Virus record (IMG/VR): IMGVR_UViG_3300045988_099134
Span: 42,922-74,921 of that record
Source of the DNA: a virus
DNA length: 32,000 nucleotides
Reading direction: 5' to 3' (one strand)
Shown: in pieces, positions 846 through 32,000 of the stretch
How the letters are laid out: each line of letters opens with the position of its first letter
Position numbering within the stretch: position 1 is the first letter of the stretch
The notes under the pieces: model-generated
What the model saw: only the letters and a program-made list of their open reading frames with translations
Databases searched by the model: none
What the model was told of the DNA's origin: nothing
Program-made: the position numbers and the translations under genes

Positions 846-1355
846 ATGCCAAGGGCAAAGAGTGTTTCAGAATTAAAGCGTGAGGATGAAGCTAAAAGGT
901 TCTTTGACGAGTATTCAAAGAGTGGGAATATTACGAAGTCCATGCAAAAGATTCGTCCTGATTTAAGCGATAAGAGTGCTTATAACAAGGGATATAAGAT
1001 ATTAAACAGTCCTTTATTTAGGAATGTCATACATGAGAGGGTAAAAAAGAGAGATCAAAGGAGTGTTATGACAGTAGAGCAACGTAGACAATGGCTTAGT
1101 GATAACATTCAAGACGAAGAAAAGGACATGAAGGATAGATTAGGATGTTTAAAAGAGCTAAATAGAATGGATGGCATAGGAAAGAGCAATATTTTAAATG
1201 TTGGAAGTGTAAATAATATTACTGTTGAACAGAAAAGAGCGATTGCGGAGGAAAGAATCAACGATATATTAGGAATCAACATGGGAAGTGAGTTTTTAGA
1301 TGCCGAGGTAATAGAACACGAGGAGGACGATAACAGTGAAGAAACAGACTCTTAG
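846..1355 (+). CDS. terS: terminase small subunit
   Basis: 169 aa. The N-terminal segment GNITKSMQKIRPDLSDKSAYNKGYKILNSPLFRNVIHERV looks like the helix-turn-helix of Terminase_2-type small subunits. The C-tail is acidic and the 3' end overlaps the large terminase start. Confidence 0.8.
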   Translation: MPRAKSVSELKREDEAKRFFDEYSKSGNITKSMQKIRPDLSDKSAYNKGYKILNSPLFRNVIHERVKKRDQRSVMTVEQRRQWLSDNIQDEEKDMKDRLGCLKELNRMDGIGKSNILNVGSVNNITVEQKRAIAEERINDILGINMGSEFLDAEVIEHEEDDNSEETDS

Positions 1356-11984: not shown

Positions 11985-12304
11985 TTGATAAGGGGGATGA
12001 TAAAAAGGATTCAGTAAAAAAAGCAAAGTCTTATGTTGCAGAACTAAATCTTTATTCAACCATGGCTCATTATGTCGGTAAAATTCTAAAAATACGCCCC
12101 AATGAGATATTAGACCATTGGGGTGTTTCTGAATTAGTTGTAGCCTTTGGGTACTACGCAAATCTACAAAGCGATAAAACATGGAATGAAATTAACGAGG
12201 CAAATAAAAATTCTAAAAAGAAAATACCTCAGATTGACAGATATGCGGTTCATTTCATGCAGAAAACAGATTTAGCGAAGGAGTCCGAAGATGTCAGTAC
12301 GTGA
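11975..12304 (+). CDS. -1 frame extension of the tail chaperone (GT-type frameshift product, joined to 11274..11975)
   Basis: The -1 frame is open from 11960 to 12304. The ATG at 12062 used by the ORF track has no RBS. A T5 tract (GTTTTTA, 11970-11976) lies in the 25-nt overlap, and the extension ends inside the tape measure start. Confidence 0.5.
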   Translation, partial: YQIIDKGDDKKDSVKKAKSYVAELNLYSTMAHYVGKILKIRPNEILDHWGVSELVVAFGYYANLQSDKTWNEINEANKNSKKKIPQIDRYAVHFMQKTDLAKESEDVST

Positions 12305-15300
12305 AGTCGGTGCTAGGTTAGTCCTTGACATTAAGGATGCCGAAGCAAGAATAAAACAACTCGAAAAAGAGTTAAAAGAAATTGAAAAGGTAAAACTCAA
12401 ATTTGATGCTAACACCCAAGAATTAGAAAGAATTAAGGCAAGATTAGAAGAAATCAAAAAAGAAAAGGAAGCTTTAGAAAGACAAAAGCTTGCTCTGAAA
12501 GTAGATTTGGATAATCTAGCTAATTTCAAGAATCAATTATTGGATATTAAAGATGATATTAGTGAGCTTAAAAAAGAGTTATTAGCCTTGAGTAATAAAA
12601 AGCTTTCTATTGATATTGATTTAAAAGCTAATGCCAACGAAATTCATGATGTCATTAATGACATGACACTAGGTGAAAACGATAAAAGCGACAAGCTTAA
12701 AGACCTATACAGTGCACGTGAAGCTCTCAAATATGATATGCGAGAGGTTGGCATTGAAATTGATGAAGTACAAAAGAAAATTAACAATCTTAACAAAGAG
12801 AAGATAAAGATTGAAGCTAACATCAGTGAATTAAATGATGCTCAAAAATTGGTTGATGAGATTGATGATTCAATCGCAGATTTAGATAAAGAAAAAATAA
12901 AATTAGAAGCTGATTCTTCTAAGTTAGAAGATACAAATAAAAAGCTAGATGAAACAATCAAAAAAGAGAATGATGTAAGAAACACAAAGGCTGATATTGA
13001 GTCACAAGTTATCGGCTATCAAGATAGTTTGAATAAACTAAACAATCTTCAACAAGCTGCTAAAGCATTAAAATCAGCTAGTAAGATTACATTTGATGTT
13101 GGAAATAAGATGTCAAATCTAGGCTCTAGTATGTTGAACATTGCTAAGAATTTCCAAAACAATCCAATAGGAGATATTGGACGATTCTTAGTACAAGGTG
13201 TTGGATATTCTAGTTTGTATAGATTGGTTTCAGGTGCACAAAACGCAATGGGCGAAGCATTTTCAAACGGTGTTAAAAGATACGATACAATCAAAGTTGC
13301 GAAAAGAACATTGTCCACTGTAGTAGGTGATGTAGACGATTCTACAACGAAAATCCAAAAGATGATTGATAACCTAGATGAAAGCATTTTGGGCCTACCA
13401 ACCACTTTAGATGACGCTCTAAGCCATGTCACGAGATTTACTTCAATCAATCATGATTTAGATAGGTCTCAAAAGCTATTCTCGGCAATTAATGATTCCA
13501 TTTTGACATTCGGTGGTGATTCTGAGGGGGTAAACAATGCGGTTACTCAGTATTCTCAAATCATGGGTTCTAAAATGGATGCTCGTACATTGAGATCAAT
13601 GGAAGATGCAGGTATGACACCAGCCTTAACTGCTATTGCAAAGAAATTTAATATGTCATTTGCAGAGTTTAGAGAAGCATTTACAGGTTCAAATCCAACT
13701 ATTTCATTACAACAATTTGAAGATGCTCTGATTGAATTGGATGAAAAAGGTGGTGGTGGCCTAAATTCGTTGGCAACTATGGTTAAATCATCTGTAGCCA
13801 CAATCTCAAACGGTCTTGACTTAATCCCTAAGAGATTTAGTAAAGCCGAAGAAAAGTGGTTAGGTGCATTAGATGAGGTTTCAACGGAATTAACAGGAGC
13901 TACAATTTACGGAAATATCTATAAACTTTCTCAAAAAGTTGAAGGCTTAGGAGATATAGGAGCAAACTTCATTAGAAGCCATAAAAAAGAAATTGGCGAA
14001 GGCATAGACTTCATTAAAACGAAGTTCTCTGAATTATTGAGCGTTTTAAAAACGTTTAGTTTCAAAGATTTTGTTGGTGGATTTAAACAAGGATTAGATG
14101 ATTTCAAAGGAGCAATTGATTTCTTCAAGCCTCTTGTTAGCGGTCTATATAATTTTGCAAAAGATAAAATCACCGAAATGGGAGACGGAAGCTTTTCTAA
14201 AGGATTAGGACGTTTCGTATCAGACTACATCCAAATTGGTATTGGATTAAAGTATGCTGGTAAGTTAATGAAACTTGGAAGCGGTGGAATCAGTCTTTTA
14301 GGAGATTTATTAAACATTTCTTCAAAATTCAAAGGAAAAAGTTTCAATATTCCATTCCTAGGAAAATTAGGAAGTAAATTTAGTTCTATTAAAAATGTAT
14401 TCAAAAGTTCAGATGAGATTACTACTGCGACAAGTACTCCAAAAACTTTTGATGTAGAAGGATTTAAAAATAAATTATCTTCATTAGCTATCATAGCTGG
14501 TGGGGCAGGAACAATTATTCTTTATTGCAAAGCGATAAAGGAAATTGAAAAGAATGTTCCAAATGACATTACAACATTGCCTATGCGATTAACAAATTTG
14601 TTCTCTGTAATGGGATTGATGATGGGAGCTAACACACTTAATACAGCAGTTTCAAAAGCATTAGAGATGAACAATGCATTAACAGGATTAGCAATGATGA
14701 TTGGTCAAGGCGGAGCTTTATGGCTATTTGCAAAAGCTATGCAAGAGCTAGATAAAACTATGCCTGATGGATTCGATACATTCAATGATAAGTTATTAGG
14801 CTTATTTGAGTGCATTGGCTCTATGACACTTATTACAGGTATTCAAGGTGGTGCTGGTGTCCTAACGGGTGGAATCACTACATTGGCCCAAGTGCTAGGA
14901 ATGGTAACAACAACAGGACTAGCTGGTACGTTGATTGCTTGTGCTAAAGCTATGCAAGAAGTCGATAAGAATGTTCCTTCAAACACAAAAGGATTGAAAA
15001 AGAAAATCCAAGGAATTATGGATGTCATTGATATGTTTGAAGGTGAAGGAACACTTTCTTCTTGGTGGAGTCAAGTTATTAAAAGTTCTGAGTCTTTATG
15101 GAAGGACATGGAGACTTGGAATATCACTAGGATTTTAAAGAAACTTGTCACTATTGGAGAATCAATTTCAAAAGTACAAGGAATGAGTATTGATAGTAGT
15201 TCTTTCAACGATCAATTCAAAGATATTCAAGATGTAATCAAGAATATTAATGATTTTGAGTTTCCTACAGTTAGCACATCAAGTGCAACAAACATTGCGG

Positions 15301-16874
15301 ATGCAAACAGTATCGTTAAGAACTATACAACAATGGCTTCTAGCCTTTCTAAAATGTCTAGTATCAACGGAAGTTCAATTAACGTTGAGAATTGTACAAG
15401 CATTTTAAAGAATGTAGCTAGTGTTGTTCAAGAAATGAAAAAGATTGTATTCCCTGATGTTACAAAGAGTATTAAATCTAATTTAAACTCTACAAATGCT
15501 CAAGAGTTCCTAGATACATTGAAGATTTTGGAACAGATTGTTCCTGAATTTGGAAACTTGCAAGCAACAATCACAAACAATCATTTACCAAATGCAGAGG
15601 ATATTCAAAAGACAATCACTAGTATTTCTCAAGCGATTGGATATATTTCTGTAGCTGGTGTTGGAACAGGAAAAGACAAGAATATGTTGTCTTACAACTT
15701 GAGACAAATGCCTGATTCTAAGCTATTTAATAACGCACTAAAGGCGATTACAACTTTAGGCGATATAATCCTCAAGTTTGGAACTTTGAACGTCTATTCA
15801 ACTGATTTCGACTTTGAATCATTACGAGCAAATATTAAAAGTATTGGAAATGCAGTGAATGAAATGGCAACCAACAAAGGATTAACTGAAAACCTAGAGA
15901 ACATGGACACAGTTAATAAGACTGTTTCTAAGTTAAAGAAAACGTGTGAAAACTTAAATTCTATCGTTGGATTAAATCTAGACTTTGTTAAGGTTGGAGA
16001 AGTCACAACAGGTATTCAAACATTCCTAAACAATGTTAAAGGATTGAAAGTTGGAGAAGCTACTACAGATGTTGTTACAGAAGTAAACTCAATCGTAACT
16101 TCCTTCCACAATATGGCAACAACTTTATCAAACATGAAGTCTGAATTTAATACCTCTGGTACAGATATGGCAAATGGAATTATTGAAGGTTTCAAAAGTA
16201 TTGATATTGAAGGTTCATTTGGAACTAAGATTGATAATGCTAAAGCTTCATTGAAGAAGAAAAGCTTCAAATCCGTAGGTAAGAAGTTTGGAAAAGATGT
16301 TGTAAGTGGATTTAGTGAAGGCATCTCTAATATGTCTAGTTCAATCTCTAATCAGATTACTATGATGTATGGATATTCAACACGATTCACAGATTTAGGG
16401 CAGTACTTAGGAAGTGCATTTAAAAATGCGTTCAACAATCAATCAGGAAGCATTAATACAGGCGGTACAACTACTCCTACAGTAAACAGAGGAAATGAAT
16501 CACAAGGAAAAAACTTTAAGTTTGCTAAAGGTGGCCCAGTTTACTTGAAAAAAGGCGGACAACCTATCGTTATGAAGCCTAGTGGAACAGATACAGTGCC
16601 TGCTATGTTGACTCCTGGTGAGTATGTAATGAAACGTAGTGCAGTTAAGAACGCAGGCCAAAGCTTCATGGATAAAGTAAATAACATGGATTTAAAAGGT
16701 GCGTTCAAAGAATTGTCTACTAGATATGGTTCTCATGTTGGAAATGTTGTTAATAAGAACGTGACTATCAACAATAACGATAATCGTGTTACGAATAACA
16801 GTATCGCTTTCAACGAAGGAAACGAAAGAAGGCAGGCTATCAAAGTAGGTAGATGCTTGAGAGGTTTGGCATAA
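12291..16874 (+). CDS. tail tape measure protein
   Basis: 1527 aa. It has an N-terminal coiled coil, a central Gly-rich hydrophobic triplicated segment, and a C-terminal GTDTVPAMLTPGEYVMKRSAV motif of the kind common at tape-measure C-termini. RBS AAGGAG. Confidence 0.9.
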   Translation: MSVREVGARLVLDIKDAEARIKQLEKELKEIEKVKLKFDANTQELERIKARLEEIKKEKEALERQKLALKVDLDNLANFKNQLLDIKDDISELKKELLALSNKKLSIDIDLKANANEIHDVINDMTLGENDKSDKLKDLYSAREALKYDMREVGIEIDEVQKKINNLNKEKIKIEANISELNDAQKLVDEIDDSIADLDKEKIKLEADSSKLEDTNKKLDETIKKENDVRNTKADIESQVIGYQDSLNKLNNLQQAAKALKSASKITFDVGNKMSNLGSSMLNIAKNFQNNPIGDIGRFLVQGVGYSSLYRLVSGAQNAMGEAFSNGVKRYDTIKVAKRTLSTVVGDVDDSTTKIQKMIDNLDESILGLPTTLDDALSHVTRFTSINHDLDRSQKLFSAINDSILTFGGDSEGVNNAVTQYSQIMGSKMDARTLRSMEDAGMTPALTAIAKKFNMSFAEFREAFTGSNPTISLQQFEDALIELDEKGGGGLNSLATMVKSSVATISNGLDLIPKRFSKAEEKWLGALDEVSTELTGATIYGNIYKLSQKVEGLGDIGANFIRSHKKEIGEGIDFIKTKFSELLSVLKTFSFKDFVGGFKQGLDDFKGAIDFFKPLVSGLYNFAKDKITEMGDGSFSKGLGRFVSDYIQIGIGLKYAGKLMKLGSGGISLLGDLLNISSKFKGKSFNIPFLGKLGSKFSSIKNVFKSSDEITTATSTPKTFDVEGFKNKLSSLAIIAGGAGTIILYCKAIKEIEKNVPNDITTLPMRLTNLFSVMGLMMGANTLNTAVSKALEMNNALTGLAMMIGQGGALWLFAKAMQELDKTMPDGFDTFNDKLLGLFECIGSMTLITGIQGGAGVLTGGITTLAQVLGMVTTTGLAGTLIACAKAMQEVDKNVPSNTKGLKKKIQGIMDVIDMFEGEGTLSSWWSQVIKSSESLWKDMETWNITRILKKLVTIGESISKVQGMSIDSSSFNDQFKDIQDVIKNINDFEFPTVSTSSATNIADANSIVKNYTTMASSLSKMSSINGSSINVENCTSILKNVASVVQEMKKIVFPDVTKSIKSNLNSTNAQEFLDTLKILEQIVPEFGNLQATITNNHLPNAEDIQKTITSISQAIGYISVAGVGTGKDKNMLSYNLRQMPDSKLFNNALKAITTLGDIILKFGTLNVYSTDFDFESLRANIKSIGNAVNEMATNKGLTENLENMDTVNKTVSKLKKTCENLNSIVGLNLDFVKVGEVTTGIQTFLNNVKGLKVGEATTDVVTEVNSIVTSFHNMATTLSNMKSEFNTSGTDMANGIIEGFKSIDIEGSFGTKIDNAKASLKKKSFKSVGKKFGKDVVSGFSEGISNMSSSISNQITMMYGYSTRFTDLGQYLGSAFKNAFNNQSGSINTGGTTTPTVNRGNESQGKNFKFAKGGPVYLKKGGQPIVMKPSGTDTVPAMLTPGEYVMKRSAVKNAGQSFMDKVNNMDLKGAFKELSTRYGSHVGNVVNKNVTINNNDNRVTNNSIAFNEGNERRQAIKVGRCLRGLA

Positions 16875-20147: not shown

Positions 20148-22439
20148 ATGATTCCTTACTTTGAAATATTAGAATTTGGAAAAGTTAAGAAAAGATTCAG
20201 AGAGGCTTTAAGCACAATCAGTTTTTCAAACGAGTTAATGACAGTACCTGAAATGCAAATCACAATTCCTAACGAATACTACGATTTAATCTCAGGAAGA
20301 AAAGAAATGAGGGTAATCATGGATTGTGGAGTTTTCTACGGAATGATTACCAACTATAAACCCTCTGTAAGTGGTTTAAACATATCTCTAACGCACGTAA
20401 TCAACGAATGGGAATACAGACAAGTCCCAACAAATTATGCGGTTAAAAACGCTCTTATAAAGAACGTATACGAAAGCGAAGATATGTATTATTCGACTCA
20501 GTGGAAGATGAATTTTGAAACTGAGATTGATAACGAAAAGATTGACTATGTTTATTCTAGACAATCTAAATTGGATGCACTTACTAAAACTTGTGAATTG
20601 ACACAATCTGTTTATTGGAGAGTTCCATTTACAAATGATAAGCAAGTTGAAGTTGGATATTTTGGAAAGAAACAACCTGTTATGCTTTCTAATAAACCAA
20701 CGTTAGGAAGAAACTACAGAATCATTGGTGAGCCAACAATGGAAACCAATTTTTCGGATGTTATTAACTTAGCTACAGTTTATGCTAATAAATCTGATAG
20801 TGGTATGTCCTCTTTGTCATTAAGAGAAGTATATAACGATAAAAGCTTACAGAACCCTAAGTTTCCTGTAGTTATTTTGAGATCAAACATAAATAACGAG
20901 CGTGATTATGAATATGTAGACTTTCCTAAATTAGCTCCTAACAATCAATTGGAGTATTCGATTATTGATACGGAATCAGTTGGATATGAAAGCGGTGTAT
21001 TCATTGAAGGAACATTTGCTTTTGATGATTTATCGCCATTTAGTCTAGAGGACATGACAAAAGACTCTAAGGGCTATAAATGGGTAATTCCTAAAGAGCA
21101 AAGATTTTTAACAGATACAGAGGAAATAAACAACGCTAAAGCTTTATGGCACTCTTTAAAAGACATTTGGAGTAAATCTGCTATTGCTGCTTTATGTGGT
21201 TCGTGTCACGTAGAATCAACCTTAAACCCTAACTTGTATCAAATGGGTGATGTTCCTGATTCTCAAAAAGGATTTGGATTGGTTCAATGGACTCCGTACA
21301 CACGAATCACCAATTGGCTTGGTTCTCATGGATATTCAAGCTACACAATGTACGGAAAAGGGGAAGTAGCTAAGTTAGTTGAAGAATGGTCAACAAACGC
21401 TACAAATGGGCCTTGGATTCCTACTCCTTCATATAACATAACATTCCAACAATGGTCACACATGGAAGCCGATATGAATTACATGGTAATGGCTTTTATG
21501 GCAGATTATGAACGTGGTGATACATCTATTGATTTACAGTATCAAAAACGTATTGAATTTGCTCAACGTATTTATGGTTTGATTCCTGAGTGGGAACAAG
21601 ACGATAACGGAACTACAACCGATACGGATAAAACACAATCTCGTCCTTGGAACGCTCAGAATTTTATCAACACATGGAATGGTCAATCTATCGACATGGA
21701 TGGTGTACCTCCTGAGCAACCATATCAATGTGTAGATGCTTGGAAAAAAGCATTGCAGACATTAAATTATCCTGACCCAACGAGAGCTATTGGCGGTGAT
21801 GGATATGCAGATTACATTTGGTATAACAGAGATGAATTAGGCTATTCTCAATTCTTTGATTATGTTGATACACCTCAATTTGGCGATTGGTGCATATTCG
21901 GTAGAGGTGGTGACACACCTGCATCACACGTTGCAATGTACGTTTCAGATGCTGGTAATGGTAGAGCTAATTTCTTTGGCCAAAACCAACCTTATCCGTA
22001 TTGCAATACCACAACAATAAGTACATCAAATATCATTGGTATTTTCAGAGTAAAGAGTGTTTATGTACAACAGAGTATTGACCCTGAGTCTACAAACGGA
22101 ACAACTATCATTACTGATAACGATAGAATTTATGCGGCCAAGGTTGTATATGATTGTGCCTGTAGAAAACTAATTAATGCAAGAAGAAAGTTTTCTATCA
22201 ACACTTCTTGTGAAGCATTGCCTAAAGAAGTAAATGTAGGTGATAGAATCAGATTTATTTATGATCTCAATTTATTACAATTAGGAAGTTGCAATAGATA
22301 CATGAAACGTATTTTAAAGCAAGATGATTGGTTCTATATCACAAACCTACAAAGAGAAATAGATAAAACAGGAGTTGAAATAGACACATTGACTCTAGAG
22401 AAATTCCTAAGAACAGATAGAGACGGAAAGAGTGGTTAG
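20148..22439 (+). CDS. tail-associated peptidoglycan hydrolase (tail-tip-position protein with lysozyme-like and CHAP domains)
   Basis: 763 aa. The central segment CGSCHVESTLNPN...GFGLVQWTPYTR (Glu356) resembles the phage tail lysozyme fold. The CHAP domain has YQCVDAWKK (Cys528) and ASHVAMYV (His594). N- and C-terminal structural parts flank the enzymatic insert. Confidence 0.8.
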   Translation: MIPYFEILEFGKVKKRFREALSTISFSNELMTVPEMQITIPNEYYDLISGRKEMRVIMDCGVFYGMITNYKPSVSGLNISLTHVINEWEYRQVPTNYAVKNALIKNVYESEDMYYSTQWKMNFETEIDNEKIDYVYSRQSKLDALTKTCELTQSVYWRVPFTNDKQVEVGYFGKKQPVMLSNKPTLGRNYRIIGEPTMETNFSDVINLATVYANKSDSGMSSLSLREVYNDKSLQNPKFPVVILRSNINNERDYEYVDFPKLAPNNQLEYSIIDTESVGYESGVFIEGTFAFDDLSPFSLEDMTKDSKGYKWVIPKEQRFLTDTEEINNAKALWHSLKDIWSKSAIAALCGSCHVESTLNPNLYQMGDVPDSQKGFGLVQWTPYTRITNWLGSHGYSSYTMYGKGEVAKLVEEWSTNATNGPWIPTPSYNITFQQWSHMEADMNYMVMAFMADYERGDTSIDLQYQKRIEFAQRIYGLIPEWEQDDNGTTTDTDKTQSRPWNAQNFINTWNGQSIDMDGVPPEQPYQCVDAWKKALQTLNYPDPTRAIGGDGYADYIWYNRDELGYSQFFDYVDTPQFGDWCIFGRGGDTPASHVAMYVSDAGNGRANFFGQNQPYPYCNTTTISTSNIIGIFRVKSVYVQQSIDPESTNGTTIITDNDRIYAAKVVYDCACRKLINARRKFSINTSCEALPKEVNVGDRIRFIYDLNLLQLGSCNRYMKRILKQDDWFYITNLQREIDKTGVEIDTLTLEKFLRTDRDGKSG

Positions 22440-24260: not shown

Positions 24261-25751
24261 ATGACTTATGTAGGTGGAGGATGGGCATTACTTGGAAATC
24301 ATCAAATTTGGTCATATAGTGGCATATGTAATATGTATTTCCAAGTATACGCATGGAGCGAACAAGATGCTATAAATAATAGGTCTACAGTCCATACAAG
24401 AACTAGGATTTTAGTTGAAAATAAAAACCCAAACTATTCAGGTTATCGTGTTGAACAAGATTGGTCAGCTGGTGTTACAGGAGCGCCGGATTACAGTAGC
24501 CATGCTACATTAACAGATGGTGGTGCTGGTACGAACAAGGAATATGTTCTACAAAATGGTTCATTTACTGTTGACCATGATTCTAATGGTAATGCATCAA
24601 GCAAAGTGCATTATTGGTTTAATGGAACATATACAGGAGCTATAGGTAGCCCTACAAGCACAAATATAGTAGACATCTCGCTTCCTAATATTGATAGAAC
24701 CGCAGACAAGGCAACAATAAGCAATGTTGGAAGTACATACAAAACAATGTATTGTACAATTTCTGTTCCGTTTTATTCTGAGGAAAACCAATGGAGTCGT
24801 GATGGGAAAACATGGACGGATTGGAATAAAGTAATAAAAGCAGATACGCCTTTTGTAGATACATGGACAGGATTAAAGCCGAATACAAAATACACAGGAT
24901 ATTATCGCTTTAAAAGGAAATACAATGGAGTTTGGAGTGAAGCAGTTGATTTTACCACAACAACTAAATATCCTAATGCGCCTTCAAAAGGAAGTGTTTC
25001 TTTAAGCTCGGTAACGTCCAATTCTGCAAAAGTTAGTTGGAGTGGATTCTCATTAGGAGACATGGCTACTGATTATTCTTATCAAACATCTAATGATGAA
25101 AAAAAATGGACAGACCAAGGTAAAGCAACAAGCTTAACTCTTAGTGATTTGAAACCTAATACAAACTATAAATTCTATGTAAGAATGGTCGATAACTATG
25201 GTCAACCTTCGTTAGCAGCTAGTACATCATTTACAACATTGAACCCTGAAAAACCAAACGTAGGTGGTATTGAATGTACACGGTTAACACCGTATGGCGG
25301 TATGTTTGCTTGGTATGGATTCTCTGTAAATGAAGGAGCAACAATAGATCACTATGAATATTCACTAGACAATTCAAATTGGATTAATGTGGGAACTGAT
25401 ACGCAAATTCATTTAGACAATTTAAGCCCTGAAACAAGTTATACATTATACGTTCGTGTAGTTGATAACTTCGGTTCTAAATCAGATAGTGCTACATGCG
25501 ATTTTAAAACATTGGTTGACCAATTTAAACTTGCGTACAATACAAATTTGTATCAAACAGAAATTCTAACTAAAGACGGAGTAGACATCTTGGCTAAGAA
25601 TGGAGTTAACTTGATTGTTGATACAATTGGAAAAGAGCGATTAAGGACTGCCAAGGTTTTCTGCAACGACAATGGAGTTATAAAGAAAATAAAAGCAGTT
25701 TACTACAACAAAAAAGGTAATATTCAACACTATAAAAGCTATGAAAATTAA
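24261..25751 (+). CDS. tail fibre/receptor-binding accessory protein with three fibronectin type III domains
   Basis: 496 aa. There are three units of about 90 aa each, ending in L.PNT.Y.....(V/F).....G..S......F.T (about aa 147-235, 238-327 and 329-418). Confidence 0.7.
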   Translation: MTYVGGGWALLGNHQIWSYSGICNMYFQVYAWSEQDAINNRSTVHTRTRILVENKNPNYSGYRVEQDWSAGVTGAPDYSSHATLTDGGAGTNKEYVLQNGSFTVDHDSNGNASSKVHYWFNGTYTGAIGSPTSTNIVDISLPNIDRTADKATISNVGSTYKTMYCTISVPFYSEENQWSRDGKTWTDWNKVIKADTPFVDTWTGLKPNTKYTGYYRFKRKYNGVWSEAVDFTTTTKYPNAPSKGSVSLSSVTSNSAKVSWSGFSLGDMATDYSYQTSNDEKKWTDQGKATSLTLSDLKPNTNYKFYVRMVDNYGQPSLAASTSFTTLNPEKPNVGGIECTRLTPYGGMFAWYGFSVNEGATIDHYEYSLDNSNWINVGTDTQIHLDNLSPETSYTLYVRVVDNFGSKSDSATCDFKTLVDQFKLAYNTNLYQTEILTKDGVDILAKNGVNLIVDTIGKERLRTAKVFCNDNGVIKKIKAVYYNKKGNIQHYKSYEN

Positions 25752-25767
25752 ATAGGAGGTACATATA

Positions 25768-27480
25768 ATGGGAGTTAGAATACAAGAATTGCCTGAAACA
25801 ACAGGTATTAACAAGGAAGATTTATTGATCGTTGAAGATGGACAAGGAACTAAAAAAGGTACTGTTCAACAGTTAGATGAAGCACTAGGAGTTAGTCAAC
25901 TAAAGGAAGATTTAATTAAACAACTTGAATTACAAGAATTTTATAATCAAAAAACAGTTAGAAGTGTGCAAGGCTATTATGATGCCGATTTAAAAGGTAT
26001 TGGAACGTTAGTATCAAAATTACCACTAATTATCACAAGCGTTGAAATTAATACAGTAATCAAAGGAACGGGAAGTGCTAAACTTGAATTACTTGATGAG
26101 AATAAAAATATTATTGCAACTTCAACAAGCACTTACACTAATAAATTAGTGTTTAACTTTAATGATTTGTATGTTGGAAATTATGATAAATTATGGATTC
26201 GAGTATCATCTGAAACATTATTATTTGCACGTGCTGAGTGCGATATTAATCGCATAATTATTGATACAAATGAAAATTATGCAACATACAATGTTAATGA
26301 TAATTGGAATTATAATAATCTATATAACTATCCATTACTATTTACATTAAACGGAAAAATTGGTAATAACAGTGTAATTGTTGGAACTAATGAAAAGTTT
26401 AACCGTATTATTGATGCAGTGCAGTATTGTAACACTAGACCTAATTATGTATGGAATATCTATATCAAAGAAGGAACTTATGATATTTACAATGAATTAG
26501 GCGGTTCAAGTTGGTATAGTGGTATCACAAGCGCCAAAGGAAATATGCAAGGTATATCACTAGCAGACAATGTGAATTTGATTGGATTAGGTAAAGTGAC
26601 ATTACAATTCAATCCATCAGATGATTTAGCCACAGAAAGTAATGTTCCTAATGTGTCAGTACTTGAATTAAGTGATGTCAATAACAAGATTGAAAATATT
26701 AAAATTGAATGTAGAAACTGTAGATATGGTATCCATGATGAAACAGATGGTGGAAAACCTAATTCAACTCGATATTTTAAAAATGTTGAAATTACGCACA
26801 ATGGTGTAGTTAGTGGCACATGGAACGCACCAGTTTCTTATGGCTGTGGAAGTTCAGATAATTCAAAATTTGAATATGTGGATTGCAAATTTAATAGCTG
26901 TTGGTTGGCGCACCAAAGCAATCAACAAACTACACCGCCTAACTTTATCGCAACTAATTGTACGTTTAATGGTGGTTCATATGCAATATCACTAAATACA
27001 AGTGGAACTTGTAAAGCTAATATTACGTTTAATAATTGTGAAATTAATTATATGGTTAGAGTGCTTGAAGATGCAGATATTTGGAGTATTTATGGTGGTG
27101 GTAATAATCTATTTAATTATGTTGTTATTGGTAATAATAAACTTAGTTCACAACCTTTTAAATTATATGATTTAACTAGAACATTTAAAAATGTTGGCAC
27201 TAGTAAAATTGTAAAAGGTAATGCAGTGCAAATTCACAATGAAGGTATCGCAAATGCTAATGATAGTAAACAAGTAATTGGAATTGCATTGAATGATGCA
27301 GAACAAAATACAGATGTTAGAGTTCAGCTAAAAGGATACTATGACTGTTATAGTGTTGCACCTTTTGGAAGCAATAATACATTATTAGGAGTTTCAAATG
27401 GAGCAATCGTAGCAAACAATGAAAATTACTTTGCTATTGGCGTTTATGTTGATGATATGCAAATGATTTACATTTACTAG
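25768..27480 (+). CDS. tailspike/receptor-binding protein with right-handed beta-helix (pectate-lyase-like) body
   Basis: 570 aa. The N-terminus MGVRIQELPETTGINKEDLLIVEDGQGTKKGTVQQL is a typical spike anchor. The body has NIYIKEGTYDI, GISLADNVNLIGLGKVTLQF and NIKIECRNCRYGIHDE, plus N-rich repeated rungs. Confidence 0.7.
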   Translation: MGVRIQELPETTGINKEDLLIVEDGQGTKKGTVQQLDEALGVSQLKEDLIKQLELQEFYNQKTVRSVQGYYDADLKGIGTLVSKLPLIITSVEINTVIKGTGSAKLELLDENKNIIATSTSTYTNKLVFNFNDLYVGNYDKLWIRVSSETLLFARAECDINRIIIDTNENYATYNVNDNWNYNNLYNYPLLFTLNGKIGNNSVIVGTNEKFNRIIDAVQYCNTRPNYVWNIYIKEGTYDIYNELGGSSWYSGITSAKGNMQGISLADNVNLIGLGKVTLQFNPSDDLATESNVPNVSVLELSDVNNKIENIKIECRNCRYGIHDETDGGKPNSTRYFKNVEITHNGVVSGTWNAPVSYGCGSSDNSKFEYVDCKFNSCWLAHQSNQQTTPPNFIATNCTFNGGSYAISLNTSGTCKANITFNNCEINYMVRVLEDADIWSIYGGGNNLFNYVVIGNNKLSSQPFKLYDLTRTFKNVGTSKIVKGNAVQIHNEGIANANDSKQVIGIALNDAEQNTDVRVQLKGYYDCYSVAPFGSNNTLLGVSNGAIVANNENYFAIGVYVDDMQMIYIY

Positions 27481-27573
27481 TTAACTAAATAAGAATTTAT
27501 TTAATTTGTTACTTGTGCTTGATTATTTTAAGCACGTGTAGTAAGTTTAACTTAGGAAAAATGCATAAAAAAA

Positions 27574-27610
27574 GAAGTTGGAATTGTCCGCTAAAACATC
27601 ATCCAACTTC
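27574..27610 (-). terminator. hairpin oriented as a minus-strand intrinsic terminator (or a recombinase/regulator site)
   Basis: GAAGTTGGA (27574-27582) and TCCAACTTC (27602-27610) form a perfect 9-bp inverted repeat with a 19-nt spacer. An A7 run (27567-27573) precedes it on the plus strand, which is a T7 tail on the minus strand. Confidence 0.4.
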
Positions 27611-27614
27611 AACC

Positions 27615-27644
27615 TTGATTAGGTCGTTTTTATTATACCATAAT
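27615..27644 (+). promoter_or_regulatory. candidate promoter for the recombinase gene
   Basis: TTGATT (27615-27620), an 18-nt spacer, then CATAAT (27639-27644), about 40 nt upstream of the ATG at 27686. Confidence 0.3.
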
Positions 27645-27685
27645 TTCGACCGTTGACTATATTTTTTATGCCAGGAGGAGAAATT

Positions 27686-28681
27686 ATGAAAGAACAATTT
27701 GTGAATGAATTTATTTCGTCTTTATCAGATGATTTTGATAAAGATATTTTAAGTGTATTGTTTAAGAAGTTAACTGTATTTGTTAACGGTTATGAAATAA
27801 AGCCTATTGAAACATCTGTAGCACTTTATACAAATTATATGCCTGAGTGCTATCAAACATACTTCGTAACAAGAAAGATTGAAGGAATGAGTATGAAGTC
27901 TTTGGAGATGTACGATCTTTACTTAAAAGATTTTTTTAGACAAGTACATAAGCCTATTAAAATGATTACTACAAACGATATTAGAGTTTATCTGTATAAA
28001 GTTCAGACTCAAAGAGGAATAAGCAACAGAAGTCTAGATGCTAGAAGAACTGTTATCAACGCTTTCTTTGAATGGTGTTGCAATGAAGAATATATAAATC
28101 GTAACCCATGTAGAAATATTAAGAAAATCAAGTATGAAGAAAAAGAACGCAAGCCATTATCATCCATAGAACTGGAAGAATTAAGAAATGCTTGTGTAAC
28201 ACTAAGAGATAAAGCTCTTTTTGAATTGTTGTATTCGACAGGGTGTCGTGTTTCAGAAGTTGTAAACTTAAATAAAGCAGATGTTAATTTTGAAACTAAA
28301 GAAGTTGTATTATTTGGTAAAGGCAATAAACATAGAATATCATACATAAATGCAAGAGCAGAGATTGCTTTAAAGAATTATCTTAATTCTAGAAATGATG
28401 ATAATAAAGCGTTGTTTGTTTCAGACAGAAAACCACATAAGAGATTATCAAAATTTGGAATCGAGAAAAGAATAGGACAACTTGGAGAATTAGCTGGAAT
28501 TGAACGTAGGATATTCCCTCACTTGATTAGACATACAACTGCTACAGATGGTTTGAATCGTGGCATGGGTGTTGAGGAAGTCCAAGCTATTTTAGGGCAT
28601 GAAAACATTGCTACAACAATGATTTATGCTAAAGTATCTAAGAACAATGTAAAATTACATCACACAAAATGTATTGTATAA
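27686..28681 (+). CDS. tyrosine site-specific recombinase (XerC/XerD-like phage integrase family)
   Basis: The ATG at 27686 lies 6 nt after AGGAGGAG; the ORF track start at 27653 is a TTG without an RBS. Catalytic signature residues are all visible: STGCRVSE (Arg), GKGNKHR (Lys), PHLIRHT (His-x-x-Arg), LGHENI (His) and TTMIYAKV (Tyr). There is an N-terminal SAM-like core-binding domain. Confidence 0.9.
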   Translation: MKEQFVNEFISSLSDDFDKDILSVLFKKLTVFVNGYEIKPIETSVALYTNYMPECYQTYFVTRKIEGMSMKSLEMYDLYLKDFFRQVHKPIKMITTNDIRVYLYKVQTQRGISNRSLDARRTVINAFFEWCCNEEYINRNPCRNIKKIKYEEKERKPLSSIELEELRNACVTLRDKALFELLYSTGCRVSEVVNLNKADVNFETKEVVLFGKGNKHRISYINARAEIALKNYLNSRNDDNKALFVSDRKPHKRLSKFGIEKRIGQLGELAGIERRIFPHLIRHTTATDGLNRGMGVEEVQAILGHENIATTMIYAKVSKNNVKLHHTKCIV

Positions 28682-28686
28682 GTTAT

Positions 28687-28723
28687 AGGACGTACTACAT
28701 AAAATGTACGTCCTTTTCTTTTC
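28687..28723 (+). terminator. intrinsic terminator after the recombinase gene
   Basis: AGGACGTAC (28687-28695) pairs with GTACGTCCT (28706-28714), the loop is 10 nt, and TTTCTTTTC follows. Confidence 0.75.
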
Positions 28724-28800
28724 ATTATATAATTGAGATGCCATAAAACAGTACCTTGGAAAATATGAGAGAGATGAAATATTTTTGGAGGTGTAAATTT

Positions 28801-29181
28801 ATGAATGTACAAGATTTTTTAACTTTATTACAGACTGCTGCTACTTTAGTTTGTGGTGGATTAGCTTTATATTTTAAATTCAGTACCAAAGCTAAAACTA
28901 AAGCAAAAGAAGTTCAAGAAGTGATTGCTAAAATTACTGCCCAAGCAGTTGTTTACATTAAAGAAGCTGAGGACAACTACAAAGATACAACTAATGCTGG
29001 TGGTAAAAAATTTGAAGAAGTTGTCGGCAAGCTTTATGATCTAGTGCCTGATGCATTGCATGGCATCATTACAAAAGAAATGATTAGTGAAATCGTTCAA
29101 AGTACTTTTGATGAAATTGAAGAATACGTTAAGATTCAATTAGATAATGGAATTGATAAAATCAACGTCAAAGGTGACTAA
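28801..29181 (+). CDS. holin, LL-H-like (N-terminal transmembrane helix plus helical cytoplasmic domain)
   Basis: The ATG at 28801 follows GGAGGTG (28787-28793); the ORF track start at 28756 is a TTG codon with no RBS. It has one transmembrane segment (LLQTAATLVCGGLALYF) followed by AQAVVYIKEAE...GGKKFEEVVGKLYDLVP...IITKEMISEIVQSTFDEI, the pattern I associate with Holin_LLH proteins. It lies upstream of the endolysin. Confidence 0.6.
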   Translation: MNVQDFLTLLQTAATLVCGGLALYFKFSTKAKTKAKEVQEVIAKITAQAVVYIKEAEDNYKDTTNAGGKKFEEVVGKLYDLVPDALHGIITKEMISEIVQSTFDEIEEYVKIQLDNGIDKINVKGD

Positions 29182-29582
29182 TGGGAAAAGTTATCACTAT
29201 TGATTTAGAATATGTTTTATGGCTTCTAGGTTTCATTGCTTCCGCTTGGGGAGTAGTAAAGATTATTAAAGAGCTAAAGAAACCTAATGACGATTTAAAA
29301 GAAACTGTTAGAAAACACGAAGAATGGTTAGCAAGAGACAATGAGAGAATAAAATCAATCGAAAGCTTAGTTATCACACAAGAAGGGATTAAGAAAGAAT
29401 TGAATGAACATTCTAGAATGTTAGGGGAACATGAGGAAAGATTAGAAGAAGATAAGCAACGTGGTAATTTGACATTAAAAGCAAATATCGCAATTATCAA
29501 CAATATGCTTTCTGAAAACGACAAAGATAAGCTCCAAGAAACTAGAGACGAGATTCAAGACTTTCTGCTAGATAAAAACTAA
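29181..29582 (+). CDS. membrane-anchored coiled-coil protein, lysis-cassette accessory
   Basis: 133 aa, with a TAATG overlap to the holin. It has an N-terminal transmembrane helix (YVLWLLGFIASAWGVV) followed by a charged coiled coil. Architecture only; family not recognised. Confidence 0.55.
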   Translation: MGKVITIDLEYVLWLLGFIASAWGVVKIIKELKKPNDDLKETVRKHEEWLARDNERIKSIESLVITQEGIKKELNEHSRMLGEHEERLEEDKQRGNLTLKANIAIINNMLSENDKDKLQETRDEIQDFLLDKN

Positions 29583-29595
29583 GGAGGAAAGAAAT

Positions 29596-29700
29596 ATGGA
29601 AGAAAAAGAAGTAAAATTTGAAGATTTATCAGAAGAAGCTCAATCAGAGTTATCAAATGGAAAAGAAGAAGGTGAAGAAGAATGTCATATTCAAGCTTAA
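29596..29700 (+). CDS. possible 34-aa acidic micro-ORF overlapping the endolysin start
   Basis: AAGGAGG (29581-29587) lies 8 nt before the ATG at 29596. Product MEEKEVKFEDLSEEAQSELSNGKEEGEEECHIQA. It overlaps the amidase start by 19 nt in another frame. Confidence 0.3.
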   Translation: MEEKEVKFEDLSEEAQSELSNGKEEGEEECHIQA

Positions 29701-30779
29701 CAAATAAATATATTCCCGCTAGCGCAGACAACTATATGCGAGGACGTGGTGGCTATAAAGTATGTAAAATTACACCACACCACATGGCGTGTCAGTGGAG
29801 TGCCGAAAGATGCGCTCAATCATTCCAAGTAAGCGGAAGAATGGCTAGTGCAAACTATTGCATTGGTTCAGACGGTACGATTGTTTCGAATGTAGACGAA
29901 GAAAACAGAGCGTGGACAAGTTCGAACTATTACAACGATTGCCAAGCTATCACAATTGAAGTTGCAAATGAAACGTGTGCGCCTAATTGGACTATCTCAA
30001 CTAAAGCATGGAATGCATTAGTAAATTTATGTGTTGATATTTGTAAGAGATACGGATTTAGATTAAATTATACAGGAAATGCGAATGGAAGTTTGACAGA
30101 GCATAGAATGTTTGCAAGTACAAGTTGCCCAGGCCCTTTCCTACACGATAGAATGCCTCAATTAGCACAAGAAGTAAATGCTAGATTAGATGGTCAGACT
30201 GTAGCACCAAGCGCTCCTAGCACTCCAAGCGCTCCAAGTGGTGAAAAGTATTCAGTCGGTACACCTATCTGCACAAATACATTAAGCGTAAACTGTTACG
30301 GAACTTCTAAAATCTTAAAAGGGGATTGGAACGGTTCAATTGGTAGAGTAATCAAAGGTGCTAAATATCCATATCGTGTTGATCGTAATGGAGTAGCTAT
30401 TGGATGGACAAATGATGCAGGTATCGATACAGACCCTCATACACCAGTAGGAACGACGCAATCAAGTAGTGAAGCTATCGACCAAATCTTGCATGAAGGC
30501 AGCTATGTTACATCTGTACATATGAAAATCGGCAATCAAGGCTTAAAGAAGATTGGTGATGATTTATGCTGCTACTTATCTCAATTAGGCGGTTGGTTTC
30601 CAATTCGTATGGTAGACAAAGTGCCAAATTCAGATGGATATAATGACAATGTATTGCACACCACAAATGCAGTTGTCTATGTAACTAGAATCAGAGTTGA
30701 TGCGGTTAATGTTCAAAAGAATATTGTTAAAATTGGCGGTATTTGGGTTGACCCAACACCATTAACAGAAATTGCGTAA
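29682..30779 (+). CDS. endolysin, N-acetylmuramoyl-L-alanine amidase (Amidase_2/PGRP type) with C-terminal wall-binding region
   Basis: 365 aa. Zn-ligand pattern: KITPHHMA (His), then TEHRMFASTSCPG (His-x7-Cys), plus ASANYCIGSDG and NRAWTSS. A Pro/Ser linker (APSAPSTPSAPSGE) is followed by about 180 aa whose family I did not recognise. RBS GAAGGTGA. Confidence 0.9.
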   Translation: MSYSSLTNKYIPASADNYMRGRGGYKVCKITPHHMACQWSAERCAQSFQVSGRMASANYCIGSDGTIVSNVDEENRAWTSSNYYNDCQAITIEVANETCAPNWTISTKAWNALVNLCVDICKRYGFRLNYTGNANGSLTEHRMFASTSCPGPFLHDRMPQLAQEVNARLDGQTVAPSAPSTPSAPSGEKYSVGTPICTNTLSVNCYGTSKILKGDWNGSIGRVIKGAKYPYRVDRNGVAIGWTNDAGIDTDPHTPVGTTQSSSEAIDQILHEGSYVTSVHMKIGNQGLKKIGDDLCCYLSQLGGWFPIRMVDKVPNSDGYNDNVLHTTNAVVYVTRIRVDAVNVQKNIVKIGGIWVDPTPLTEIA

Positions 30780-30904
30780 AGCACAAAAATAACACATATA
30801 AGTGTCAAAATTGTACAAAATGCGCAAAAATTACAATTAAATATCTATAAAAGCGTCATAATTAAAAAAATGACACAAATCCTTCAACTATTTTTTGTAT
30901 ACTT

Positions 30905-30937
30905 AGCCTATGATTAAGTTCATAGGCTCTTTTTTTA
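30905..30937 (+). terminator. intrinsic terminator of the lysis cassette
   Basis: AGCCTATGA (30905-30913) pairs with TCATAGGCT (30920-30928), the loop is 6 nt, and CTTTTTTT follows. Confidence 0.8.
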
Positions 30938-30983
30938 TGCTATTATTTTCATAGCTCATCTACTAGTGTAGAAAGAGTACCTT

Positions 30984-31017
30984 AGACCGTATGATGTTTG
31001 TACGGTCTTTGTTTTTT
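30984..31017 (+). terminator. second intrinsic terminator
   Basis: AGACCGTA (30984-30991) pairs with TACGGTCT (31001-31008), followed by TTGTTTTTT. Confidence 0.65.
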
Positions 31018-31027
31018 GTGTTATAAT
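30998..31027 (+). promoter_or_regulatory. promoter P1, extended -10
   Basis: TTGTAC (30998-31003), an 18-nt spacer, then TGtTATAAT (31019-27). It overlaps the 3' arm of the preceding terminator. Confidence 0.5.
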
Positions 31028-31095
31028 ATATGCACATAGATTAGCAGAGTGCACAATGCAACCAATATCATTCTATATTATTCTTATCTATACTA

Positions 31096-31104
31096 TGGTA
31101 TAAT
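31096..31104 (+). promoter_or_regulatory. promoter P2, extended -10
   Basis: TGgTATAAT. No good -35 element. Confidence 0.4.
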
Positions 31105-31110
31105 ATCTAT

Positions 31111-31208
31111 GCTTAGGGGAATACAATCGTATTCTATTTATCTCGTGTACCAATTATAGGAACAAGGAGAAACGAAACTGCTATGCATTTAGTTGTGTGG
31201 CAGTTTTT
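31111..31208 (+). ncRNA. candidate small RNA A (start approximate)
   Basis: P2 (or P1, giving about 175 nt) is followed by the hairpin GAATAC-aatc-GTATTC. The unit ends at the terminator CTGCTATGCA/TGTGTGGCAG (31178-31203) plus T5. There is no ORF with a credible RBS. Confidence 0.25.
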
Positions 31209-31212
31209 GCTA

Positions 31213-31221
31213 TGTTATAAT
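31213..31221 (+). promoter_or_regulatory. promoter P3, extended -10
   Basis: TGtTATAAT, immediately after terminator A. Confidence 0.4.
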
Positions 31222-31227
31222 AGCAAA

Positions 31228-31433
31228 GGCCAAAACATGAGAAATTCTAAGTGAACCATGTTAGCTTGATGCACAAATCCAAGTTAGGCATATGGATTTA
31301 TTAGTATTGATCTATAGTCATACCAAGCGTGGCTGATTGATATTATTTTTATGCAAGTCGACTACAAAGAAATATTATTTTCTTACCACTGAATAGAGTA
31401 CATTCTAGAAGTACTTGAAAGGTGGTTCTTTTT
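31228..31433 (+). ncRNA. candidate small RNA B (start approximate)
   Basis: P3 is followed by hairpins AACATG/CATGTT (31238-31262) and AAATCCA/TGGATTT. The unit ends at the composite hairpin ACCAC...AGTAC-attctagaa-GTACT...GTGGT (31385-31426) followed by TCTTTTT. Confidence 0.25.
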
Positions 31434-31453
31434 ATATAAAATTCATACTGATA

Positions 31454-31462
31454 TGATATAAT
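31454..31462 (+). promoter_or_regulatory. promoter P4, extended -10
   Basis: TGaTATAAT. Confidence 0.4.
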
Positions 31463-31468
31463 CATGTT

Positions 31469-31674
31469 GCTAGGAAAAGTAGAGTGATAAAGGCCCAAGC
31501 TCTCTTTGGTGTAGTGCAGATTGCAGACGTGCAATTGAATCTTAACATTTCTCTTTGTGGCACTAGCATAAACAACAACAAAATGTGACAATTGCTAAAA
31601 GCTCCCCTTTTTAGATACTGTCACCAAAACGATTCCATACCTCATCCACATCAGGTATGGTTTTTGTTTTTTTT
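31469..31674 (+). ncRNA. candidate small RNA C, about 200 nt (start approximate)
   Basis: It runs from P4 to a strong terminator: CCATACCT (31635-42) pairs with AGGTATGG (31653-60), followed by T5GT8. Internal helices are TGCTAG/CTAGCA (31467/31562), TTGCA-gacg-TGCAA (31521-34) and GTGACA/TGTCAC (31585/31619). The last helix encloses a CUCCCC loop. No plus-strand ORF is present. Confidence 0.35.
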
Positions 31675-31694
31675 AACAAATCTTAAAATTTATG

Positions 31695-31703
31695 TGCTAT
31701 ATT
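31695..31703 (+). promoter_or_regulatory. promoter P5, extended -10
   Basis: TGcTATATT. Confidence 0.35.
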
Positions 31704-31709
31704 ATTGAT

Positions 31710-31793
31710 GTGTTCTTCGTGGATGAACACACCCTTTCTAAGATAACTAAAACTTATGCAAAAGAGTCTCCTTACCAAGCGGGAGACTTTTTT
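31710..31793 (+). ncRNA. candidate small RNA D, about 85 nt (start approximate)
   Basis: A 5' hairpin GTGTTC/GAACAC (31710-31730) is followed by a single-stranded CACCCUUUCU-containing stretch. The terminator is AGTCTCC (31765-71) pairing with GGAGACT (31782-88) plus T6. Confidence 0.35.
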
Positions 31794-31832
31794 GTTTATA
31801 TATTATAAGGAAAGGAAACAATAATATGTTTT

Positions 31833-31862
31833 TGGCATAATGGCATAAAGTGCGTGGCATAA
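31833..31862 (+). repeat. three copies of TGGCATAA (two abutting, third 6 nt later)
   Basis: Copies are at 31833-40, 31841-48 and 31855-62. This is a candidate operator or iteron. Confidence 0.55.
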
Positions 31863-32000
31863 AACATGGAATATTTTTTTAGGTTCAATTAAATAAAATG
31901 TGGTCAAAAACGAGAAAATATGAGAACATAAAGTAAACTAGATGAATAAAAAATAAAGGAAAATAAAGAGCTAGAAACTTATAAATATCATTCAACAAAA

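Follow-up and report, generated by a model that had tools for sequence, protein, structure and literature searches.

A Rin-like tyrosine recombinase and two core-type sites probably delimit an exchangeable spike cassette in a temperate siphophage of Erysipelotrichaceae

The 32,000-nucleotide stretch analysed here (positions 42,922 to 74,921 of IMG/VR virus record IMGVR_UViG_3300045988_099134; hereafter the window) covers the late genes of a temperate siphophage, all of them on the plus strand, with a gene for a tyrosine recombinase placed after the last tail gene and ahead of the lysis genes. We consider it rather probable that this enzyme is a Rin-like recombinase of a receptor-binding protein (RBP) locus, and that its two core sites delimit an exchangeable spike cassette. 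By analogy of locus anatomy, the best reading is that it represents a Firmicutes counterpart of the Bifidobacterium Rin 'RBP locus invertase', in a variant with a single cassette and direct sites. The features on which this reading draws are the following (window coordinates; aa, amino acids; nt, nucleotides; ORF, open reading frame).

25768-27480, plus strand: last tail gene, encoding a receptor-binding protein (tailspike) of 570 aa with a constant N-terminal anchor and a variable body
25768-25897, plus strand: anchor-coding part of the spike gene (aa 1-43), 97-98% identical whatever the cassette
25898-25917, plus strand: 5' core-type site, AACTAAA-GGAAGA-TTTAATT, a dyad lying in frame (Q-L-K-E-D-L-I) at the constant/variable junction
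25918-27482, plus strand: exchangeable spike-body cassette, bounded by the right arm of the 5' site and, at its other end, by the left arm of the 3' site
27483-27502, plus strand: 3' core-type site, AACTAAA-TAAGAA-TTTATTT, a non-coding dyad starting 3 nt past the spike stop codon
27483-29599, plus strand: constant backbone block, comprising the 3' site, leader, recombinase, terminator and two membrane-protein ORFs
27505-27545, plus strand: hairpin after the spike gene, without a T-run (-14.2 kcal/mol, z = -2.5)
27574-27610, plus strand: conserved recombinase-leader hairpin, GAAGTTGGA ... TCCAACTTC with a 19-nt loop, supported by covariation
27686-28681, plus strand: arm-less Xer-like tyrosine recombinase of 331 aa (putatively Rin-like, of the RBP locus), from Pfam, NCBIfam and PDB matches
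28687-28723, plus strand: hairpin and T-run after the recombinase, resembling an intrinsic terminator (-14.1 kcal/mol, z = -3.8)

The case begins with the distribution of variation across the locus. Comparison of the window with ten contigs (L004-L013), to which loci from IMG/VR were added later, showed relatives to be 97-98% identical to the window up to approximately 25912 and again from approximately 27480 to 29599, with the sequence between replaced. The 20 related loci hold 14 unrelated cassettes and three minimal states, and the 13 cassettes other than that of the window include GDSL esterases, a GH43 domain and unknown folds. Breakpoints of the variable segment agree within a few nt over these 20 loci, variability being confined to 25918-27482. 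An initial annotation of the window, made from its sequence alone, had predicted breakpoints at about 25900, just past a conserved anchor, and at about 29180; the former was found as anticipated, but the latter actually lies at the spike stop codon (27480-27483). Flanks beside 10 different cassettes diverge by 0.4-1.5%, compared with 3-6% at distances of at least 1 kb, and show no 'halo' of donor sequence, from which we conclude that cassette turnover is fast relative to point mutation. Pairwise divergence across most of the leader and of the recombinase gene (0.2-0.9%) is below that of the rest of the region.

The same annotation had regarded 25900-29180 as a single AT-rich island joining the spike body, the recombinase and the holin. 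Windowed composition agrees that the profile is not flat: the GC content of this interval is 0.303, against a mean of 0.351 +/- 0.010 (minimum 0.332) for same-size windows over the structural genes (846-25751), with values of 0.300 for the spike cassette (GC3 0.172), 0.305 for the recombinase and 0.318 for the holin-like ORF. The spike anchor (25768-25912), at 0.352, is at the level of the backbone, and the amidase gene reaches 0.397. The dip is thus real yet modest, at about 5 points. Whilst the island is one stretch by composition, it is not one evolutionary unit, as exchange is limited to 25918-27482; and since the recombinase and holin-like genes lie in the constant backbone, the receptor-binding domain is not travelling with the recombinase. 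Accordingly, of the earlier suggestion that this is a host-range cassette moving with its own recombinase, the horizontal exchange of the spike body stands, whereas the recombinase stays with the backbone, and the cassette also occurs in phages without such an enzyme.

The spike sequence itself has no match in Pfam, PHROG or the PDB. An AlphaFold model (pLDDT 71.5) contains a beta-sandwich followed by a parallel beta-helix, for which Foldseek returns phage tailspikes and enzymes of the pectin-lyase fold (4ru5, 8iqe, 6k0v, 5c1e) with low TM-scores, and the modelled body is consistent with a depolymerase-type receptor-binding protein.

Each of the two sites that bracket the cassette is 20 bp long and consists of 7-bp inverted arms (AACTAAA / TTTAKTT) around a 6-bp centre, which is the usual anatomy of a tyrosine-recombinase core site, and the two are in direct orientation. 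The centres are invariant across the 20 loci (GGAAGA, of GGAGGA type, at the 5' site) and differ between the 5' and 3' sites at 3 of 6 positions. Searching the 32 kb for AACTAAA-N6-TTTAKTT with at most one mismatch recovers these two sites only (4 strand-matches against 0.23 expected, a number reached by 0 of 100 shuffles). There is no conserved third site on either strand of the window, or of L076 and L004, which represent the remainder of the 50.8-kb genome; one extra match with a single mismatch in L076 is missing from L077 and L078. The likeness of the two sites cannot be due to coding constraint, as the 3' site lies outside any coding sequence. Within the 5' site, four of six independent lineages use CTA (14% usage) as the first Leu codon of the left arm (P = 0.005). 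Inverted repeats of the kind that bound invertible segments, sought around the spike, recombinase and holin genes, amounted to chance-level AT-rich matches.

The recombinase gene starts 205 nt past the spike stop codon, and its ribosome-binding site, AGGAGGAG (27673-27680), lies 5 nt ahead of the ATG. Its only Pfam domains are PF00589 (7.7e-38) and PF13495 (1e-08), an arm-binding domain being absent; the closest solved structure is Pyrococcus abyssi XerA (4a8e, E = 1e-39), and the catalytic motifs align (GCR188, GKGNKHR 211-217, H279-x-x-R282, H305, Y314). The initial annotation's description of a complete tyrosine recombinase, with all catalytic residues and a ribosome-binding site of its own, is therefore sound. 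Values of dN/dS against homologues of 87-92% identity (0.04-0.12) place the gene under strong purifying selection. In the contig collection, 117 indexed blocks contain the recombinase with an identical aa sequence, and homologues at E <= 1e-20 number more than 2,600. The slot between the last tail gene or RBP gene and the lysis genes is held by a recombinase in six phage lineages including that of the window; lineages sharing this synteny include Terrisporobacter phage TPELB_ph1, which also encodes a second, 527-aa integrase (domains not typed), and C. perfringens phage phiCp-D.

That the enzyme is not the integrase of this phage follows from comparison of phage and prophage forms. Phage-form contigs encode a 366-aa integrase (Arm-DNA-bind_4, Phage_int_M and PF00589) approximately 1.3 kb past the endolysin gene, beside a cI/cro/antirepressor module, and in prophage-form contigs host genes stand in its place. 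The window is 100% identical to L005, a 73-kb metagenome contig that contains the phage as a prophage, in which phage homology stops at position 14321, corresponding by extrapolation to approximately 32006 of the window, i.e. some 6 nt past its end; this attR lies 3.3 kb downstream of the recombinase. The host side of the junction holds a ComGF-like competence-pilin gene region, then LeuRS, FemAB and TyrRS of Holdemanella, the LeuRS and FemAB proteins falling in clusters named Holdemanella (Erysipelotrichaceae); a scan of species-representative genomes did not find the prophage. Neither tRNA or tmRNA genes nor Rfam families were found in the window, and there is hence no tRNA-type att site within it. 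The recombinase is flanked by phage DNA on both sides in every contig. Together, the separate arm-type integrase, the position of attR and the phage DNA on both sides refute the initial annotation's reading of the gene as the integrase with an adjacent attP.

These data also bear on the proposal that the enzyme is a second integrase, for insertion at another bacterial site, or that a small nested element has it as its integrase, which we regard as most improbable. The protein is a member of the tyrosine recombinase family, such proteins are annotated 'integrase' in PHROG, and the gene is present in one and absent from the other of two similar backbones (L025 and L073, described below). Nevertheless it lacks the arm-binding domain, the prophage junction is at a distance from it and beside the other integrase, and the repeat of a site that would be expected 3' of the recombinase after insertion of an element is not found.

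A role as a Xer-type resolvase of dimers or multimers of the phage genome, with the position beside the spike gene incidental, is likewise improbable. The best family model is of XerA type (NF040815, which names XerA / 'integron integrase'; 232.8 bits against a cutoff of 220), as is the best structural match. In addition, the distantly related phiCp-D, in which the synteny is preserved, encodes ParM; it may be a plasmid prophage, to which a resolvase role may still apply. However, the equivalog cutoffs for XerC (190.8 against 335) and XerD (179.2 against 330) are missed by a wide margin, the window phage integrates by means of its own integrase, no single dif-like site was identified, the two sites instead bracketing a variable cassette, and a homologue of 58% identity belongs to a shufflon (see below). 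The initial annotation's version of this idea, a dimer resolvase of a plasmid-type prophage, is without support, since the phage integrates and shows no sign of a plasmid lifestyle, no par genes having been seen in the window phage family. The score against the integron IntI model TIGR02249 (79.5 bits) is so far below its cutoff (265) that the system is not an integron.

Further evidence comes from sister lineages. In L018-L021, a Lachnospiraceae-type prophage, a recombinase of equal length and 58% identity (P0076) occupies the equivalent position, after the last tail gene and before the endolysin gene. L018 and L020 are natural inversion isomers at four 22-bp sites of alternating orientation (consensus ATGAACTAAATAGCAAAT; 7144-7165, 7879-7900, 10205-10226 and 10899-10920 in L018): from one sample to another, the two segments that flank the recombinase and endolysin genes have exchanged places and are inverted, and four alternative in-frame C-termini (95-117 aa) are joined to one 57-aa N-terminus. 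This is a true four-cassette RBP shufflon, and one apparently undescribed for Firmicutes phages. It shares with the window the position of the recombinase, the site core AACTAAAT and a junction approximately 50 aa into the RBP, after G-V-x-x-L, but differs in having four identical alternating sites, small head-domain cassettes and inversion isomers between samples. The shufflon consensus, defined without reference to the window, has a single window match (at most 5 mismatches), at 27478, i.e. on the 3' edge of the cassette; with 0.75 chance matches expected per window, the chance of one falling on a cassette edge is approximately 5e-4.

L025 has an unrelated backbone, and the recombinase region is all that it has in common with the window (85% nt and 92% aa identity); it carries both types of site, one inside a 921-aa RBP and the other at the RBP stop codon. 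L073 has the backbone of L025 but no recombinase gene; the right arm of its 3' site survives in decayed form and, with its flank, suggests that L073 once had a recombinase and later lost it. Insertion of the recombinase module as an element was considered and rejected, as there is no copy of the site downstream and the comparison of L025 with L073 looks like simple loss. In two lineages at 62% identity (L040, 7200-9900; L041, 6700-9900) a cargo of 2.5-3 kb lies between the RBP gene and the recombinase gene, made up of genes for membrane proteins, an ORF of 270 aa on the minus strand, and a truncated GDSL-like ORF with an TTAACTAAAG-type site on either side. Accessory genes or silent cassettes thus also seem to have a hotspot in the site region.

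If the recombinase is indeed the enzyme of the RBP locus, its substrates would be the 5' site (25898-25917) and the 3' site (27483-27502), with the spike body between them. With two direct sites and one cassette, inversion is impossible in the window genome. The enzyme, which we infer to bind and cut both sites, would most likely join like with like (5' with 5', 3' with 3') between two phage genomes in one cell; exchange would then be intermolecular, the spike body being swapped whilst the anchor, the recombinase and the other virion genes stay put. The unlike centres would act as a barrier that keeps the 5' and 3' sites from recombining with each other, and in rare cases joining of 5' to 3' would delete the cassette, for which the expected junction of the excised circle is ...TAGTTAACTAAA + centre + TTTAATTAAACAACTT... 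and that of the empty site GTCAACTAAA + centre + TTTATTTAATTTG. By these routes the recombinase probably mediates cassette exchange or deletion.

Some sister phages (L031, L008 and L010) are without a spike body. In L031 (9789-9815; the same in L075) the exact left arm of the 5' site is followed by GGAAGA, the right arm of the 3' site and the 3' flank, leaving a 52-aa anchor peptide, and the same junction is present in a second, independent assembly with 150x coverage. L008 (9745-9816) and L010 (9662-9756), which encode spike stubs of 59-65 aa, were considered as further precise empty sites and rejected, since 46-69 nt of other sequence is retained. A search of viral and metagenome collections for other independent precise-deletion junctions returned only the L031 genotype again.

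Several observations weigh against assigning the exchange to the recombinase. Among approximately 30 loci of the window family there is no inversion isomer, no tandem cassette array and no minus-strand match to the sites. TPELB_ph1 and phiCp-D, with the same synteny, are without recognisable comparable sites; nor did the surroundings of their RBP genes, or of that of L014, yield convincing repeated sites. To some extent the site patterns were drawn from the very data in which their matches were then counted, and the precise deletion in L031, one evolutionary event, may have arisen through microhomology. A semi-conserved hinge peptide present in many RBPs, S-x-L-K/N-x-x-L, is encoded by the 5' site, so that the protein may account for some of the conservation of this site. 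Finally, the cassette of the window recurs in three otherwise unrelated phages at 84-92% nt identity with unrelated flanks (limits of the shared block, in window coordinates, 25890-27498, 25892-27506 and 25890-27497). The shared block begins at the 5' site and ends in the 3' site, which in itself supports the two sites as limits of the cassette. These three backbones have the same kind of sites and no Xer-like recombinase nearby, and exchange at the junction therefore needs no enzyme in cis; their 5' centres differ (TGAGGC, TAATGA), so that site-specific exchange with the window phage would be hindered.

Part of this evidence (i.e. the same cassette and junction in three recombinase-less backbones, the junction peptide semi-conserved in many RBPs, and the lack of inversion isomers or cassette arrays in the window family) also favours the main alternative explanation, in which homologous or short-homology modular exchange occurs at a conserved tail-fibre hinge and the recombinase is a bystander, either the relic of a shufflon or an enzyme with another role; phage RBPs are, moreover, commonly exchanged downstream of a conserved N-terminal part. 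We nevertheless think this explanation doubtful. The non-coding 3' boundary has the same dyad arms as the coding 5' boundary, and between unrelated backbones homology is limited to the inter-site block, which leaves almost no flanking homology in which to recombine. Nor is there a halo of donor sequence beside the cassettes. The recombinase is under strong purifying selection with its position kept in six lineages, and the sister recombinase of L018-L021 demonstrably works at homologous sites.

A broader proposal, for which we claim plausibility rather than probability, is that of natural recombinase-mediated cassette exchange (RMCE). Temperate phages of gut Firmicutes may pool RBP cassettes that have common arms and unlike centres, the latter blocking excision, and an enzyme acting in cis or provided by a co-resident prophage may swap spike bodies in frame between unrelated phages. 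Such a system would be an integron-like, inter-genome counterpart of Rin, Gin and Min.

The non-coding sequence on either side of the recombinase gene has structure of its own. The leader hairpin (9-10 bp, with a semi-conserved loop of 19-20 nt) is kept upstream of recombinase homologues down to 55% aa identity in an alignment of 14 loci, and 6 of its 10 consensus pairs show compensatory changes; it matches no Rfam family. An A-run precedes it, such that on the minus strand it reads as a hairpin and T-run, and a second inverted repeat (27622-27652) follows it and brackets an almost invariant TAtTATAnCATA box. This structured leader could be a regulatory RNA, an operator/promoter arrangement or an accessory DNA site. 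The leader loop at 27612-27622 is dimorphic (CCTTGATTAGG or CCTGTAACAGG), each version forming a small hairpin, and both co-occur with the same cassette type. A candidate promoter claimed in the initial annotation exists as a 9/12 consensus match, TTGATT-18-CATAAT (27615-27644), but promoter-like matches in the region are at chance level (35 found, 36.5 expected). The terminator that it placed after the recombinase was recovered as a hairpin with a 9-bp stem (28687-28695/28706-28714) followed by a T-run. In L073 an equivalent terminator lies directly 3' of the spike (RBP) gene, and in that backbone it thus marks the end of the tail operon and is not a property of the recombinase.

The remainder of the window is organised as follows.

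846-2979, plus strand: small and large terminase
to 16874, plus strand: portal, capsid and tape measure (tape measure, 12291-16874)
20148-22439, plus strand: tail lysozyme
24261-25751, plus strand: FN3 tail protein
28801-29181 and 29181-29582, plus strand: two small membrane-protein ORFs
29682-30779, plus strand: Amidase_2 endolysin, 365 aa (Pfam, 1.6e-18)

The endolysin is a second module swapped independently, with sharp breakpoints (29599-30951) at which no dyad sites were found; in L004, L006, L008-L010 and L013 the Amidase_2 type is replaced by a GH25+SH3_5+CHAP type of 575-594 aa. The ORF designated holin encodes 126 aa with one transmembrane segment, and its sole match is to a PHROG of unknown function. 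PADLOC gave no match for the recombinase or spike and a weak partial pAgo match only for the holin-like ORF (E = 1.6e-4), and the island has no match among 50,697 GenBank phage records (megablast and blastn). Between the endolysin gene and attR, 1.2 kb (30780-32000) is ORF-free and AT-rich, with three terminator-like hairpins (30905, 30984 and 31758) and indel polymorphisms among relatives (31004-31211, 31070-31258 and 31135-31453); it may carry small RNAs or attP arm sites. Positions 1-500, which have the lowest GC content in the window (0.258) and no convincing gene, are probably an intergenic or pac region upstream of the small terminase gene.

Tail-fibre switching by serine invertases is textbook knowledge for phages Mu and P1; to our knowledge, the one reported case of such switching by a tyrosine recombinase is the Rin shufflon, in prophages of Actinobacteria, and in the searchable literature we found no description of such recombinases, or of such a system, for Firmicutes phages. 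The Rin shufflon occurs in prophages of Bifidobacterium and Eggerthella lenta (Mavrich et al. 2018, PMC6109161; PMC8778435); the 'RBP locus invertase' Rin, which is XerD-like and arm-less, is encoded there in addition to a prophage integrase of lambda type. Our comparison is with the anatomy of that locus as described. Common to both are an arm-less tyrosine recombinase beside the RBP locus and separate from the prophage integrase, and an RBP split into constant N-terminal and variable C-terminal parts at a short repeated site, with a second direct site just past the gene. Rin loci, however, hold several Rv cassettes in both orientations with inversions observed, whereas the window has a lone cassette between two direct sites, with no partner for inversion elsewhere in the genome; the sites of Rin are 11 bp and asymmetric (TTCCCTAACCC), those of the window 20-bp dyads with unlike centres; and the hosts are Actinobacteria and Erysipelotrichaceae, respectively, the cassettes of the window family being enzyme-bearing spike bodies of 1.3-2 kb. 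As multiple cassettes and inversion are lacking, the window locus is to be regarded as a single-cassette, direct-site variant and not as a shufflon.

Other systems share individual elements of this arrangement. In the Gin, Cin and Min systems (Mu, P1 and p15B), too, a recombinase is encoded immediately 3' of tail-fibre genes and alters host range by exchanging their C-terminal parts, but these enzymes are serine invertases that require an enhancer and Fis and catalyse inversion only, with an unrelated enzyme family and site architecture. In the R64 shufflon (Rci, sfx sites) a tyrosine recombinase places C-terminal cassettes of an adhesin (PilV) on a constant N-terminus, although that system is plasmid-borne, concerns a pilus adhesin and has asymmetric sfx sites that enforce inversion only. 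Integrons and RMCE (e.g. Cre with heterospecific lox sites) have in common with the window a tyrosine recombinase gene adjoining a site at which unrelated cassettes succeed one another, and in RMCE a cassette flanked by the same arms with unlike centres is a design that allows exchange and not excision, an analogy that may apply here. Unlike an integron, the window has neither attC hairpin sites nor a cassette array, and its cassette is fused in frame and not promoter-driven.

The spike locus looks like a host-range-changing system, and it is chiefly host range that stands in the way of predicting and engineering interactions between phages and bacteria of the gut. The comparisons show that a large family of genes annotated 'integrase', between the tail and lysis modules of Firmicutes prophages, belongs to RBP loci, and annotators should bear in mind that prophages may encode tyrosine recombinases other than their integrase. 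What is known is extended by the four-cassette shufflon of one lineage and by a one-cassette variant, with two direct sites of unlike centres and very fast turnover among near-identical genomes, that is also encountered in unrelated phages. If correct, the system would offer a ready-made tool for phage retargeting, with defined 20-bp sites and in-frame junctions, and enzymatic exchange of cassettes between phages, if true, would constitute a new route of modular phage evolution.

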